This document shows, one piece after another, positions 19,390 to 62,060 of a stretch of DNA of 64,000 nucleotides (position 1 is the stretch's first letter; every line of letters starts with the position of its first letter). Under the pieces are notes generated by a model. That model saw only the letters and a list, made by a program, of their open reading frames with translations. It made no database searches and was not told the DNA's origin. Both the position numbers and the translations under genes were made by a program. Location: sequence record OQ689735.1. The stretch is one strand, 5' to 3'. The DNA comes from Escherichia phage 4E10.

Positions 19390-19419
19390 ACTATACCATA
19401 GTCTTGTCAGCTTGTAAAC
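19390..19419 (-). promoter_or_regulatory. T4-type early promoter
   Basis: GTTTAC, 18 bp, TATAGT; ACAAGAC/GTCTTGT inverted repeat brackets the -10. Confidence 0.5.
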
Positions 19420-20846
19420 TAAAATTTTAATTCATTTGCCAAAGCATCTAACTGAGCTCGAGCTGATTCGTTTCTTTGATAGCGATTCTGTTCAGCCTGA
19501 ATCTGTTGTGAACCTGCTACTTCACTCAATTCGGTTGGAGTAGAATCTTGTTCAATTTCTACCCATTTTTGATTTCCTTTTTGAACACCCATCAAAAACT
19601 TATTCCACTTATTCTTATCACCATATCGTGATTTGATTTGCTTAATGAGTTGTTGTTCAGCAGCTGCTAGCTCCTCGGTTTCAATGACCGCAAGCATAAA
19701 ATCAGCTGTTGCTGGAAGACCAGCAGATTCTGCAATATCGCTCATGTTAACATCGGAAGAGTCCCAAGCTTGTTTACCAACCTGTGCTGCAGTCCAAAGA
19801 ACAGTTTCGGTTTCAACAGCCAGAGCACGCAATTCCTCTGCGATAGCTTTAACAGTTGTGTAACTATTTTCTGAATAAACTCGGATGCGACAAGATTTAC
19901 AAATACCCAGATAGTCGACAATAATGATTGTTGGAACAAAATTCTTTTTGAGCTTCAATTCATTCAAGAGAGACCTGAATGTGTTAGCGTCTGCTCCACC
20001 AGTAGGATACTGTTTAACGATTAAACGCCCAAGAGTAGATTTCTCACGCCATTTTTCCATTTTTCCTTTATACTCAGCGTAAGAAATATGTCCATCATCA
20101 ATATCGTCAAGAGAAACATCGAGCATATTAGCGTCAATACGTTTAGCACAGACTTCTTCTGCCATTTCCATGGAGATATAAAGAACATTATGTCCGAGCT
20201 GTAAATAATCTGCCGCTAATGAACACAATCCTAATGACTTACCAACGTTAACGCCAGCCATTAAAACGTTCAGTGTTCCGGTCTCAGCTCCGCCTTTAGT
20301 AATTTTGTTTAGAATTCTGAGTTTAAATGGAACTTTACGAGCTTTATTCATATAAGATAGCCAGCGTGCTTCGTAGTCATCCATCCAATCATGACCAACG
20401 TAGCTATCAAATGAAATTGATAATGCTTGTCGCATGATGTCAGGAATAGCACCTACATCTGGCATTTTCTTATTTCGTTTTTCCGGAGGAAGCTCAGCAT
20501 TAGTTTGAATTTCAATTATTTTAGACGTAGCATTAAACATCGCCCTTTGCTGAACATATTTTTCTGTTTCTTTTACTAACCAGCTGTGGTCTTCTGGAGA
20601 ATCAGCCAGTTTTGAAATAAGTGTTTTTACACCAGAATATTCTGTTTCAGTAAATGAACTATTTTCTAATGCAACATTTAACGCATTAATAGATGGAACG
20701 CTATGGTACTCATTAACATGAGATTTAATTAATTTGAATGTATTTTTAGCTGGACCACTTTCAAAATATTCTGAATCCATATATGGCCAAACTTTTGAAA
20801 AATAAGCTTGATCAAATATAAGATGAGAAAGAATAATTTCTACCAC
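19419..20846 (-). CDS. 41: replicative DNA helicase (DnaB family)
   Basis: 475-aa ORF; Walker A GVNVGKS; matches T4 gp41 length. Confidence 0.9.
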   Translation of the reverse strand: MVEIILSHLIFDQAYFSKVWPYMDSEYFESGPAKNTFKLIKSHVNEYHSVPSINALNVALENSSFTETEYSGVKTLISKLADSPEDHSWLVKETEKYVQQRAMFNATSKIIEIQTNAELPPEKRNKKMPDVGAIPDIMRQALSISFDSYVGHDWMDDYEARWLSYMNKARKVPFKLRILNKITKGGAETGTLNVLMAGVNVGKSLGLCSLAADYLQLGHNVLYISMEMAEEVCAKRIDANMLDVSLDDIDDGHISYAEYKGKMEKWREKSTLGRLIVKQYPTGGADANTFRSLLNELKLKKNFVPTIIIVDYLGICKSCRIRVYSENSYTTVKAIAEELRALAVETETVLWTAAQVGKQAWDSSDVNMSDIAESAGLPATADFMLAVIETEELAAAEQQLIKQIKSRYGDKNKWNKFLMGVQKGNQKWVEIEQDSTPTELSEVAGSQQIQAEQNRYQRNESARAQLDALANELKF

Positions 20847-40449: not shown

Positions 40450-40920
40450 TTAATCATGTTTCCACACCCCATCGGTATTTGACCAAAGTCGCTGATTATC
40501 TGATCCTCGCCACAGCTTTTTAGTCGGAAGATTTTTCTCATACTTCCCATCAATAATAACATCAACATATTTAAGCATTTCTAGTTGTTTAATATCTTCA
40601 AACTTATATCCTGTCCACAACCAAATGCTTTTATTGGGATAAAGATTTTTAATAGTTTGAACCACAGAGTGAATCACGTCTCTGTTATCAGGATAGAGAG
40701 GGTCACCTCCGGTTATAGTCAATCCTTCTATATAATCATTATTCAAACATTCAATTAATTGTTCTAGTGTTTCACCAGTGAATGGAACACCATTTCTAGC
40801 ATTCCATGTTGATTTATTATAACACCCTTCGCATTTATGCAAACAACCTGTAACGAAAAGAACGGTCCTGCAGCCAGGACCATTAACAAAATCGCAAGGA
40901 TAAAATCTATCATAATTCAT
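40450..40920 (-). CDS. nrdG: anaerobic ribonucleotide reductase activase (radical SAM)
   Basis: 156-aa ORF; CxxxCxxC as CLHKCEGC. Confidence 0.9.
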   Translation of the reverse strand: MNYDRFYPCDFVNGPGCRTVLFVTGCLHKCEGCYNKSTWNARNGVPFTGETLEQLIECLNNDYIEGLTITGGDPLYPDNRDVIHSVVQTIKNLYPNKSIWLWTGYKFEDIKQLEMLKYVDVIIDGKYEKNLPTKKLWRGSDNQRLWSNTDGVWKHD

Positions 40921-42734
40921 TGGTGCTTAACCCTATGCATGATTTCTTTATTTTTGCCGAGATTAAATCCGCGTTCGTTCGGATTTCCCAAATAACCACA
41001 TGTTCTTCTTATTGTGTTCATCTTTTTAGGATCAGTTTCTCCACAAATAGAACAAACAAATCCATTTTCAGTAGGAGTCATTTCATGGGTACTTCCACAT
41101 GTAAAACATTTATCTACTGGCATGTTAACACCAAAATAATCTAAATGTTGTGCAGCATAATCCCATACGGCCTCAAGACCCTTTAAGTTATTTTTCATAT
41201 CAGGAAGTTCAACATAAGAAATGTGACCACCTGTCGCAATGAAATGATATGGCGCTTCACGAGAAATCTTTTCAAACGGAGTAATATTTTCTTCTACTGA
41301 AACATGGAAACTGTTAGTGTACCAACCTTTATCGGTAACATCCTTTACACTTCCATATTTTTCGGTATCAAGTTTACAGAAGCGATAACAAAGGTTTTCA
41401 GCAGGAGTAGAATACAAGCTAAAAGCAAAACCAGTTCTTTCAGTCCACTGCTTAAGACGAGCATTCATTTTAGTTAAAATTTCTTGTCCAATATCACGAC
41501 CGACAAGAATATTCAATTCGTGAATACCAATGTATCCTAAGGACACTGAACTTCTACCGTTTTTAAATAACTCAATTATATCATCATCAGGTTTAAGACG
41601 AACCCCGAATGCACCTTCTTGGTAAAGAATAGGAGCAACAGTAGCTTTAACTCCTTTTAAGGAACTAATTCTACACATCAATGCTTCAAAACATAAATCC
41701 ATTCGTTCATTGAACAATTCGATAAATTTCTGTTCATTGAACTGTGTTCCAATATAAGAATCTAATGCGATACGAGGAAGATTCAGTGTTACAACACCGA
41801 GATTATTACGTCCATCAAGAATTTCATTACCAGTCGAATCTTTCCATACGCTCAAGAAACTACGGCAACCCATTGGAGAAACAGGAATAGATGAGCCGGT
41901 GATAGCTTTATTGTTCTTAGCCGAAATGATGTCAGGATACATTCTTTTGCTTGCGCACTCTAAAGCAAGCTGCTTAATATCATAGTTCGGGTCGTCTTTA
42001 TAAAGATTAACACCTTCTTCAACGAACATAACAAGTTTAGGGAAAATAGGAGTTATCCCATCACGACCAAGACCTTTAATACGATTTTTCAGAATTGCTT
42101 TCTGAATCATTCGTTCAGTCCAGTCAGTTCCCGTACCAAATGTAATTGTTACAAAAGGAGTCTGTCCGTTTGAACTAAAGAGAGTATTTACTTCATATTC
42201 ATAAGCTTGGAATGCATCGTATACGTCTTTTTCTGTTTTAGATTGAGCATAATTCAACGCATCAGCAATTTGCCATTTTTCTGCATCCTCAATATGTTTT
42301 GCATAGGTGCGTTTAACATAAGGAGAAAGTACTTTATCTACATTCGCAAAAGTCGTTCCGCCATATTGATGGGAAGCAACCTGTGCAGTAATTTGTGCCA
42401 TAATTGCAGTAGCAACTCCAATTGATTTAGGAGTTTCAATCTGTGCATTACCTAGCTTAAATCCATTCTCAAGCATTCCTTTTAAATCTACTAAACAACA
42501 ATTAGTAAATGGAAGAGCAGGGGAATAATCAATATCATGGAAATGAATAATTCCGCTTTCATGCGCTTTCATAATAAAAGACGGGACCATATTTTTGGCA
42601 ATGTGTTTAGACACAATACCAGCCATAAGGTCCCGTTGAGTTGGAAAAACACGAGAATCTTTATTAGCATTCTCGTTTAAAAGGTCTTTATTAGTTTTAT
42701 GAATCAATCCTTCAATTTCTTTTTCAATTGTCAT
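40917..42734 (-). CDS. nrdD: anaerobic ribonucleoside-triphosphate reductase
   Basis: 605-aa continuous ORF; C-terminal glycyl-radical motif RRTCGYLG and Zn-ribbon cysteines; no intron interruption. Confidence 0.9.
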   Translation of the reverse strand: MTIEKEIEGLIHKTNKDLLNENANKDSRVFPTQRDLMAGIVSKHIAKNMVPSFIMKAHESGIIHFHDIDYSPALPFTNCCLVDLKGMLENGFKLGNAQIETPKSIGVATAIMAQITAQVASHQYGGTTFANVDKVLSPYVKRTYAKHIEDAEKWQIADALNYAQSKTEKDVYDAFQAYEYEVNTLFSSNGQTPFVTITFGTGTDWTERMIQKAILKNRIKGLGRDGITPIFPKLVMFVEEGVNLYKDDPNYDIKQLALECASKRMYPDIISAKNNKAITGSSIPVSPMGCRSFLSVWKDSTGNEILDGRNNLGVVTLNLPRIALDSYIGTQFNEQKFIELFNERMDLCFEALMCRISSLKGVKATVAPILYQEGAFGVRLKPDDDIIELFKNGRSSVSLGYIGIHELNILVGRDIGQEILTKMNARLKQWTERTGFAFSLYSTPAENLCYRFCKLDTEKYGSVKDVTDKGWYTNSFHVSVEENITPFEKISREAPYHFIATGGHISYVELPDMKNNLKGLEAVWDYAAQHLDYFGVNMPVDKCFTCGSTHEMTPTENGFVCSICGETDPKKMNTIRRTCGYLGNPNERGFNLGKNKEIMHRVKHQ

Positions 42735-59772: not shown

Positions 59773-60032
59773 ATACTGGCTTCTTTGAGTTTCGTTTTAG
59801 CAATAGTTAACTGATCGAGGCTTTCAGCATAATTCTTTGCGAATTCATAGTCTTCACAATTATCTAGTGCTTCCCAGAATTCGTCATATAAAGCGTCAAA
59901 GATAAGTCCTAAACGAACTTCAGCATCTTTGATAGCATTCACTTTACCGATTTTCTCTTCAGTATGTGGCTTATAACCCTTAATGTCTTCAATCATATTT
60001 GACTTCCTCACCAGTACATAAATCGTATTCAA
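59730..60032 (-). CDS. hypothetical protein (vs.4 position; possible Acb2-like)
   Basis: 100-aa ORF; start may be internal (MIEDIKG); function by position only. Confidence 0.4.
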
Positions 60033-60210
60033 CTAAACGAATAGGTTCATGAATGCCATATCCCTGAACAGAAATTTCTGTCGTAGGATAAATTCCACTA
60101 ATATCACCCATATTCCACGCTTCATTAAATTGCTGTTCGCCTGAATTACTAAACCATTCTGCGAAAGCATTTAGCACATCTTTAGAACCTTCAATAATTA
60201 TCTTTGCCAT
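59989..60210 (-). CDS. small hypothetical protein
   Basis: 73-aa ORF. Confidence 0.45.
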   Translation of the reverse strand: MAKIIIEGSKDVLNAFAEWFSNSGEQQFNEAWNMGDISGIYPTTEISVQGYGIHEPIRLVEYDLCTGEEVKYD

Positions 60211-60572
60211 TACAGACTCTCAGTAAAGGTACGAGCAATAACGTCGCGCTGCTGTTCCGGAGTCAGAGAGTTAAAGCGAACTGCATAACCGGATACACGG
60301 ATGGTCAGCTGCGGATATTTTTCCGGATGCTTAACTGCATCTTCCAGAGTTTCACGACGCAGAACGTTAACGTTCAGGTGTTGACCACCTTCAATTTTAA
60401 CTGTAGGTTGTGGCTCAATTTCAATTTCACGGGCATGCAAACCATAGAAAATTTCTGGGTCTACAAAAGAGTCCTCTTTAAAGGTTTTAGAGACAATAAT
60501 TCGTGCTTGAATACCATCTTCAAAATAAATAGTACCTTTATGTGTGCCTTCAAGAATTTGATATGCTTTCAT
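60210..60572 (-). CDS. GrcA/YfiD-like autonomous glycyl-radical cofactor
   Basis: 120-aa ORF; C-terminus [25 protein letters not shown] matches the glycyl-radical motif; visibly GC-richer, host-like codon usage. Confidence 0.7.
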
Positions 60573-60579
60573 ATAAACC

Positions 60580-60960
60580 TCAATTAGAAAATAAATTTAT
60601 CCAAGATTGTTCTTTAATTAAAAATGGCTCAGAATCATATGCCATTAAACTTTGCGTAATTAATCCTTTAAAAGGTCCATCAATAAATTCCATGGTAAAA
60701 TATGGAATTTTATTCATTAGCCGTGCATTAGGAGCAGTGCACAAAACTCTGCATCCTTTGAATACGCCTTTTTGTAATTTGTATTGCTTGGGATAAAATT
60801 CGCTCAAAATGTTATTATTTGCCAAAATTTCAAAATGATTTACCAATTTATTTTTAATAGTTTTTGGCGAAAAATAAAGATATTCGAAAAGCTGTGTATC
60901 TGTCATCATTGCATTCCGATTACGAAAAACTGCGGACGAGTAATACCACCAATGCAACAT
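60580..60960 (-). CDS. hypothetical protein
   Basis: 126-aa ORF. Confidence 0.5.
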
Positions 60961-61445
60961 TTACTATTACAGCAGTAGTGTACAGTGTCAATATGGACAC
61001 TATAAATCTTATCCATATCAGGAGATTTGACAGGCTCATCAATTATATACAAAATTCGCGAAAGCGATAAACCTCTGAACTTGCTTCCTTTATTACCAAT
61101 AAAACTGCGCACAGAATCAGTAAATAAACGAAAACGTATATCATCATTAGAATAACGCGAAAATTCCTTTTTGATGTTATTTGCAGAAATTTTAGCGTAA
61201 GCTGAAGTATTAGAAAGAACAATAACTGTTCCGCCATCATACAGCCAATTAGCAGCAAAGTTAGTCACAGCAATTGATTTGCCGGATTGACGTCCACCAT
61301 CTATGCGAAGTGTGCAGTACTGTTTGAGTAAGTCTTCAAATGGCGGGGTATATTCGTTTTTACAAATTTCTTCTACTCTAGCATCAGAATGGTGTGTAAA
61401 AGCATTCATCAGGGATAGATAAGGACCAGTTAAAAATGTTCTCAT
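60906..61445 (-). CDS. P-loop-containing hypothetical protein
   Basis: Track ORF 60906..61493 trimmed to ATG after GAGAGAA (MRTFLTG...); GGRQSGKS P-loop-like. Confidence 0.45.
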   Translation of the reverse strand: MRTFLTGPYLSLMNAFTHHSDARVEEICKNEYTPPFEDLLKQYCTLRIDGGRQSGKSIAVTNFAANWLYDGGTVIVLSNTSAYAKISANNIKKEFSRYSNDDIRFRLFTDSVRSFIGNKGSKFRGLSLSRILYIIDEPVKSPDMDKIYSVHIDTVHYCCNSKCCIGGITRPQFFVIGMQ

Positions 61446-61586
61446 TTTATTCTCTCTAAATTTGGGCCATTCCGTGGCGCATGAATTGTCCATTTCTGTA
61501 TTTACCCATTACCGCACTCAGGCTCGACCTTATTACAGGTTGGCGGGAATCCCTCACAAAATCATGAGGTCCAGGTTGTTCCCATA

Positions 61587-62060
61587 TTATTTGAATGATT
61601 TGACGTACTGAATAGAACCTTTACTATTCACAAAGGCAATTTTACCATTTTTGTTATACATGGTAGCAGTACGCTGATAGCCATAAGTTTGTTTACCAGA
61701 TTGATAACCAACTAATGCAAAATTATCTTCGCCCATTTTATTCTGCTTAGCGCGGATACGTTCATGACCGTGCGCCATAAGAACCTTAGCGTCGCCAGTT
61801 GCAATGGATCTACGAGTTTTTTCATCTTCAACTGTATTAACAAAGTCGTCAAATGAATCAAATTTAGCATGAGATTTATTATACAGTTTTCCATCTACTG
61901 CATAATTATATCCCTGTACATCCATCTCAACTTCTGTACCATCATCCAATACAGCAGTGATTTTTTGACCTTTTTTAAATTTCAAAAGATCAGTAAAAGA
62001 TTCAGCAATAATTTGAGAATTAATAGCTGCTTCAGTAATAAATTCTTGATATGTTTTCAT
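61587..62060 (-). CDS. head internal protein (IP family)
   Basis: 157-aa ORF; N-terminus MKTYQEFITEA is the IP capsid-targeting sequence. Confidence 0.7.
   Translation of the reverse strand: MKTYQEFITEAAINSQIIAESFTDLLKFKKGQKITAVLDDGTEVEMDVQGYNYAVDGKLYNKSHAKFDSFDDFVNTVEDEKTRRSIATGDAKVLMAHGHERIRAKQNKMGEDNFALVGYQSGKQTYGYQRTATMYNKNGKIAFVNSKGSIQYVKSFK

Follow-up and report, generated by a model that had tools for sequence, protein, structure and literature searches.

Escherichia coli grcA DNA as the probable source of the radical-domain half of a T4-type vs.6 gene

How does a gene that ends like Escherichia coli grcA come to lie in a T4-type phage, and how much of it is host DNA? The usual view of T4-type phages is that they have next to no DNA in common with their host. 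In the 64,000 nt stretch of Escherichia phage 4E10 analysed here (record OQ689735.1; hereafter the window), a preliminary description based on the letters alone had read the ORF at 60210..60572 on the minus strand as a GrcA/YfiD-like glycyl-radical spare part, GC-richer than its neighbours, consistent in this with acquisition from an enterobacterial host, and possibly able to rescue oxygen-damaged PflB or the phage's own NrdD. The reading that we favour, at a probability of roughly 85%, is that the ORF is the T4-type vs.6 (Y06I) cofactor and that its 3' half was overwritten from E. coli grcA. The gene and its biochemical function are already known; Y06I and its activity are textbook-level in glycyl-radical enzymology, so the identification as such adds nothing new. 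What sequence comparison does add is that only the radical-domain half of vs.6 appears to be host DNA.

The ORF has an ATG start, 120 codons and a TAA stop, and encodes a GrcA/YfiD homolog, the phage autonomous glycyl-radical cofactor: a small stand-alone protein of ~14 kDa with a glycyl-radical domain at its end. The 120-residue product is 100% identical to Vs.6 of T4T, the exact protein sequence was found on 187 contigs and the T4 UniRef entry carries the name 'Autonomous glycyl radical cofactor'. Pfam Gly_radical matches residues 61–101 (2.8e-18, 66.8 bits, cutoff 22.2), and phmmer aligns the protein significantly with the NMR structure of E. coli GrcA (6OWR; 8.6e-42) and also with the C-terminus of PflB (residues 697–759; 5e-26). 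The Pfam match, the alignment to 6OWR and the identity to T4 vs.6 bear out the assignment as a GrcA/YfiD-type spare part. The top NCBIfam match is the GrcA equivalog TIGR04365 (IPR011140; residues 20–120), at 153.3 bits against a cutoff of 170; the score falls short because the N-terminal half is diverged and seven residues shorter. The radical-bearing glycine is codon 95 (GGT, 60288..60290, minus strand), equivalent to GrcA G102 and PflB G734, and lies in an RVSGY motif that aligns with GrcA residues 99–103 and with RVSGY of PflB. Y06I is presumably the product of vs.6 under its old Swiss-Prot name. The naming of vs.6 as the sole small Gly_radical ORF of T4-like genomes (PMC1524935) is consistent with this equation.

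The 2 kb around vs.6 in the window show 97.2% identity to T4 and match Escherichia phage ECO95 1-6-1 at 100%. Its neighbour on the upstream side, in the co-directional cluster, is vs.7 (60580..60909, minus strand; 109 aa from an internal ATG), with phrog_2049 aligning to residues 18–126 of the longer vs.7 ORF. A Shine–Dalgarno GAGG (60578..60581, minus strand; read as TTGAGGTTTATATG) is located 5 nt upstream of the vs.6 ATG and overlaps the vs.7 stop. On the other side, the ATG of vs.5 (59989..60210, minus strand; 73 aa, phrog_1986) overlaps the vs.6 stop in the sequence TAATG, and vs.6 appears to be read within the co-directional denV–regB cluster, with overlapping stop and start. A promoter and terminator scan of 59.0–62.7 kb revealed no enrichment (14 promoter-like sites versus 13.4 in shuffles, three terminator-like sites versus 2.3), and since these counts are close to those of the shuffles no dedicated vs.6 promoter or terminator can be claimed. 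Neither an Rfam search of 58–63 kb nor a tRNA scan of the window gave a match. Between denV and vs.7 the window contains a 157-aa DUF7412 ORF (61587–62060) and a 195-aa ORF (60906–61493), both on the minus strand, at the place where T4T has the single vs.8 (216 aa), a local difference in gene content in an otherwise 97%-identical region.

At its C-terminus, which the preliminary description had matched to the radical motif of E. coli GrcA, the protein indeed has the radical domain of host GrcA, the same except for V67I, and the correspondence extends to the DNA. From the second position of codon 60 to the stop (60210..60394, minus strand), covering the structured glycyl-radical domain (GrcA residues 68–127), 179 of 183 nt in the window are identical to E. 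coli grcA (97.8%). T4T vs.6 has 178 consecutive nucleotides the same as in E. coli grcA, and the window shows two changes within this stretch, at I112 (ATT) and E118 (GAG). Codons 1–59 (60396..60572, minus strand) form a phage-type half, the diverged counterpart of the disordered GrcA residues 1–66, with an identity of ~50% in nucleotides and ~27% in amino acids to any of 81 host grcA genes. In a three-way alignment the switch to host identity is abrupt and falls between codon 59 and the second base of codon 60; host identity stops at the vs.6 stop codon. A blastn search of vs.6 against 5,426 complete E. coli genomes found matches to the 3' 185 nt alone, with 98.4% identity and in every case at grcA, while megablast of the whole 64-kb window against the same genomes returned 60206–60394 as the sole match and no other host-like tract. 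The marks of recent host DNA (near-identity at synonymous sites, host codons and sharp boundaries) are thus found at 60210–60394 and are not found at 60396–60572.

The last 183 nt of T4T vs.6 are most similar to E. coli (0.984), followed by another Escherichia species (0.973), Citrobacter amalonaticus (0.907) and Salmonella (0.825). The identity to E. coli pflB is only 78.7%, which points to grcA as the donor. Among codons for the same amino acid, Tequatrovirus and E. coli are identical at 0.95–0.98, against an inter-genus host–host baseline of 0.43–0.72. When the grcA 3' segments of the E. coli genomes are compared with the tract of OES_C-2, 2,419 are at least 99% identical and 3,007 are 95–99% identical, and the phage tract matches the former group. 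A search for the phage variants as alleles of the E. coli population found the phage GAG at codon 118 in none of the 5,426 genomes.

The N-terminal half taken alone found no NCBIfam model, even at E ≤ 10. An hhalign comparison of the N-halves of T4-like phages with those of host GrcA proteins, on the other hand, gave a probability of 93.4% (E = 2.6e-7) over 46 colinear columns, with the alignment ending at the junction, and two other phage loci (L101 and L105) have N-halves of intermediate character. Given this homology between the N-half and the N-terminus of GrcA, vs.6 is better described as an overwritten homolog than as a fusion; the profile alignment and the intermediate N-halves therefore indicate that T4-like phages had a full-length, diverged grcA homolog, the 3' half of which was later replaced. 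Residues 1–60 of YfiD are disordered, and both the binding of cleaved PFL and the efficient installation of the radical depend on them; residues 61–127 constitute the structured radical domain, equivalent to PFL 693–759 (PMC8683613). The junction in vs.6, at GrcA residue 67/68, lies near this boundary, so that what was replaced amounts essentially to the functional module required to fit host PflB and PflA.

These observations can be accommodated in a simple scheme. A diverged grcA homolog would long have been present in T4-like phages; in the ancestry of Tequatrovirus and Mosigvirus, its 3' half, from codon 60 to the stop and thus the structured radical domain, would have been overwritten by chromosomal E. 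coli grcA through homologous recombination or gene conversion. The outcome would be a chimera that joins a phage-specific N-terminal binding and activation region to a radical domain one residue away from that of the host. T4 recombines with homologous sequences on plasmids, and recombination between the phage gene and fragments of the host chromosome could plausibly have proceeded through a prior identity of ~80–85% in the conserved half. On these comparisons we infer that the host gene converted the 3' half of a long-established phage grcA homolog, giving rise to vs.6 in its present form. No description of the identity between vs.6 and grcA at the DNA level was found in the searchable literature, a scope that did not extend to the primary T4 papers (Wagner 2001 and the genome review).

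A short (GAAATT)n repeat at codons 49–53 (60414..60428, minus strand) encodes EIEIE and precedes the junction by six codons. Phages differ in the length of this repeat, with two additional residues in VIPECOOM02 (L168; EIEIEIETQP) and a deletion of 6 nt in OES_C-2 (L169). This variation looks like slippage in the linker preceding the radical domain.

A tblastn search detected grcA-like genes in 1,588 phage records, and the tract at an identity of at least 95% is present in 638 phage records, from Tequatrovirus and Mosigvirus. The distribution of tract identity is bimodal, with seven records at 90–95% and 106 at 80–90%, the latter mostly from Klebsiella or Raoultella phages among the matches listed. 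In the Mosigvirus O157 typing phage 6 the tract is 0.956 identical to E. coli. Comparison of its locus with the window gives identities of 64–71% in the flanks, 88.7% in the N-half and 96.7% in the C-half, and within 5.4 kb the 180 nt most conserved between the window and this Mosigvirus locus start exactly at codon 60. Between Tequatrovirus and Mosigvirus-like phages, 22% of same-amino-acid codons differ in the N-half and 7% in the C-half (individual pairs p = 0.006–0.07), an asymmetry that is not seen between T4 and Jiaodavirus (18/42 and 21/57, respectively). T4T, a second phage locus (L085) and a Mosigvirus-like locus (L088) have a 173-nt core without differences from E. coli, and their N-halves are ~10% diverged. 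These figures hint that the N-halves had split before the tract arose, which could reflect either repeated conversion or later exchange between phages.

Repeated conversion of T-even vs.6 by E. coli grcA, a form of ongoing concerted evolution that would keep resetting the radical-domain half to the host sequence, is a tentative proposal that we consider rather doubtful. T-even phages are strictly lytic and the host DNA is degraded. The proposal draws support from the lower codon difference in the C-half, the unchanged 173-nt cores and the peak of conservation at the tract between the two genera, and also from the C-half of Jiaodavirus, which is apparently separate, older and host-like. If recurrent conversion did occur, it would be easier once the segment had become nearly host-identical, and it would keep the phage spare part exactly matched to host PflB and PflA. 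Three observations count against it: the 5' junction is the same in all tract alleles; different phages have in common certain states that E. coli lacks, GAG at codon 118 among them; and the E. coli-type tract is retained in Tequatroviruses whose isolation host was Hafnia, Salmonella, Citrobacter, Yersinia or Serratia, so that the tract does not track the isolation host on short timescales. The same three observations leave room for a single conversion event followed by recombination among phages.

The Jiaodavirus-type loci (L166, L167 and L171; gene at 2501–2863 or 221–583) deserve separate mention. Their C-halves are at most 0.87 identical in nucleotides to any sampled host, and in Klebsiella Jiaodavirus the C-half has the Klebsiella-type LLDAVE in place of the E. 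coli LEDAVK. At the same junction as in vs.6, GC3 rises from 0.24–0.27 in the N-half to 0.58–0.60 in the C-half. Codon identity to hosts is 0.47–0.70, inside the host–host baseline of 0.43–0.72. This suggests an older or unsampled enterobacterial donor for the C-half, and Jiaodavirus may represent a second host-derived replacement at the junction used in Tequatrovirus. A different arrangement is seen in a 19 kb IMG/VR contig classed as viral (L111), which carries a full-length, 127-aa grcA at ~1501–1884 that is 86% identical in nucleotides to Yersinia grcA in the N-half and 91% in the C-half; here either the entire gene was acquired from a host, or the contig is a prophage or misclassified and contains host DNA.

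As to function, the biochemistry has been published for Y06I and E. coli GrcA, and the present analysis contributes the sequence correspondence. The rescue of PflB proposed in the preliminary description agrees with the published activity of T4 Y06I, a protein identical to that encoded in the window. As relayed in PMC8683613 from Wagner et al. (2001), the PFL-activating enzyme installs a glycyl radical in the ~14-kDa YfiD (GrcA) and T4 Y06I, and O2-cleaved PFL regains activity in vitro through either protein; where PMC8683613 treats spare parts, these two are given as the only experimentally validated ones. In GrcA, the radical on G102 is transferred to PflB C419 (PMC12338860). By analogy, the host activase PflA would put the radical on Gly95 in the RVSGY motif of vs.6, the C-terminal domain would replace the segment that PflB loses on O2 cleavage at G734 and the radical would be handed to PflB Cys419. 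The vs.6 N-half corresponds to the part that is disordered in 6OWR; since in YfiD this half governs binding to cleaved PFL and radical installation, the phage protein may engage PflB with a different timing or in a different manner. In microaerobic, gut-like conditions vs.6 would probably sustain PFL, and a running PFL would yield ATP, acetyl-CoA and formate, the last of which could serve as reductant for the phage class III NrdD. A search for an in vivo phenotype of vs.6 in the searchable literature found none.

The other proposed target was NrdD itself. Domain matches confirm the placement of the anaerobic ribonucleotide reductase genes at 40450..42734, both on the minus strand: the activase nrdG (40450..40920; Fer4_12 and Radical_SAM) and nrdD (40917..42734; NRDD at 1e-171 and Gly_radical). 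The presence of both genes in the phage invites the idea that vs.6, perhaps with NrdG as its activase, replaces the lost part of O2-cleaved NrdD, and PMC8683613 speculates on spare parts for other glycyl-radical enzymes. Genome order also lends it some colour, since a grcA-like gene is embedded in an nrdD–nrdG cluster in five of 85 phage loci from two lineages: in Aeromonas phage PX29 (L165, 359–3947) the order is nrdD–nrdG–vs.6–nrdC–nrdH, with an overlap of 23 nt between vs.6 and nrdG, L130 is arranged likewise and three jumbo phages of 345–357 kb (L107, L109 and L110) show the order nrdD–grcA-like–nrdG. However, vs.6 has no detectable similarity to NrdD, including its C-terminus: the best BLASTP match to the NrdD of the window has E = 2.6 and lies away from the radical site, and T4 NrdD is absent from the PDB matches to vs.6 at E ≤ 1e-3. 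The NrdD radical motif is RRTCGYLG rather than RVSGYAVRF, the vs.6 radical domain is of the PFL type (48/61 residues as in PflB), a host GrcA/PflB-type domain is retained even in the nrd-linked Aeromonas homolog (RVSGYAIRF) and the published activity acts on PFL. Direct repair of NrdD therefore finds no support in the sequence, and we regard it as improbable.

The placement of grcA-like genes in nrdD–nrdG clusters suggests instead a link through formate supply or through NrdG, and activation of the phage GrcA-like protein by NrdG is a possibility. Formate is the reductant for most characterized class III ribonucleotide reductases, and T4 NrdD has been proposed to contain a formate site (PMC4493059). 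As formate is a product of PFL, metabolic coupling, in which a PFL kept alive would provide the reductant for NrdD, would be a reasonable rationale for vs.6. The same rationale might explain why so many enterobacterial phages, among the 1,588 records, carry a grcA-like gene.

The extent of the host contribution can be judged from composition. The preliminary description had called the gene GC-rich and host-like without distinguishing its halves, and had taken this as consistent with acquisition from an enterobacterial host. The deviation is real: vs.6 has a GC content of 0.410 and a GC3 of 0.30, against a window mean GC of 0.345, which places it in the top 2% of 363-nt windows. It is confined entirely to the 3' half, with codons 60 to stop at GC 0.478 and GC3 0.40 (top 0.07% of 186-nt windows) and codons 1–59 at GC 0.339 and GC3 0.19, average values for the phage. 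A codon-usage log-likelihood ratio, with E. coli pflA, pflB and focA as host reference and 49 long ORFs of the window as phage reference, gave +31.9 bits for the C-half (host mean +43.5) and −34.4 bits for the N-half (phage mean −36.9, s.d. 12.3); none of 1,097 phage windows exceeded −4.9. Recent acquisition of the whole gene would account for the GC content and for a C-terminus that is that of host GrcA except for one residue, but codons 1–59 have phage GC3 and phage codon usage, are as distant from the 81 host genes as described above and seven residues shorter, and the same diverged N-half is common to many T4-like genera. Acquisition of the whole gene is accordingly very unlikely, and the earlier proposal of host origin stands for codons 60–120 and fails for codons 1–59, which belong to a diverged GrcA homolog of phage composition.

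Only one other 186-nt window is equally GC-rich (19657–19842; 0.489). It lies within a 453-aa helicase-like ORF (19419–20780, minus strand), the N-terminus of which we take to resemble T4 gp41. Considered as a second host-like tract, it was rejected: it has no E. coli match and represents ordinary coding composition.

Could selection alone have produced the tract, through convergence on the protein and on host-preferred codons without any transfer? The C-terminal domain is extremely conserved as a protein in hosts and phages, and grcA is so strongly codon-biased that unrelated enterobacterial genera already share 43–72% of their codons. Conservation of the protein does not entail conservation of the DNA, however, as the C-halves of two pairs of loci (L094/L095 and L099/L100) are 100% identical to a host in amino acids and only ~83% in nucleotides. 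T4 shares 58/60 codons with E. coli and only 32/58 with Salmonella, the switch is abrupt at one nucleotide position and the T4 and Jiaodavirus C-halves diverge normally at synonymous sites, at the 21/57 codons noted above. Codon identity between the tract and E. coli is far above the level that codon bias would lead one to expect. We consider convergence still less credible than acquisition of the whole gene.

Near-identity by itself gives no direction, and E. coli might in principle have received the 3' half of its grcA from a T-even phage. Against this highly implausible course, the E. coli tract fits the Enterobacteriaceae (0.92 to Citrobacter and 0.84–0.87 to Salmonella, Klebsiella and Enterobacter), agrees in GC3 with the N-half of the same host gene (0.42 and 0.43) and occurs in every one of the 5,426 E. 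coli genomes, whereas in the phage it is a compositional outlier. The direction of transfer is from host to phage. An assembly or contamination artefact, with host reads merged into the phage assembly, is conceivable for so short a tract in phage preparations that contain host DNA, but can be dismissed as next to impossible given the same in-frame junction in 638 independent phage records, T4 references included, and the phage-specific GAG at codon 118, found in no E. coli genome.

If overwriting by the host gene is correct, vs.6 offers a clean natural example of gene conversion from a host to a lytic phage, in which the functional module of one gene would be a near-verbatim copy of host DNA, joined to the phage half near a protein domain boundary.

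Known relatives place the protein in context. GrcA-like genes of the same family and architecture occur in other phages (Jiaodavirus, Karamvirus, Slopekvirus-like, RB43/RB49-like, T5-like Demerecviridae, Aeromonas and jumbo phages), but without a near-identical host tract (at most 0.87 in nucleotides in the host sample). T5-like phages of Salmonella and E. coli (L124–L150 and L162; contigs of 104–122 kb) encode a GrcA-like protein of ~122 aa with ~52% identity to vs.6; in DNA its C-half stays below host-level identity (at most 0.75), and its N-half looks unrelated to the T4 type. The C-terminal domain of PflB (residues 697–759) has the same fold module and motif and the 48 shared residues mentioned above, whereas vs.6 is a stand-alone 14-kDa protein without the catalytic barrel and its DNA is 78.7% identical to pflB against 98% to grcA. 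E. coli GrcA (6OWR) has the same glycine radical motif and the same two-part architecture, an N-terminal region for binding and activation followed by a structured radical domain; vs.6 residues 61–120 are identical to GrcA 68–127, with 98% identity in the DNA, whereas the N-terminal 59 residues are ~27% identical and seven shorter, and GrcA V67 is replaced by Ile. The closest counterpart is T4 Y06I, the vs.6 product, which is identical as a protein and is encoded at the same position between vs.7 and vs.5 in the denV–regB interval; the DNA of the window is that of T4T except for three synonymous changes, all of which lie in the 3' half.
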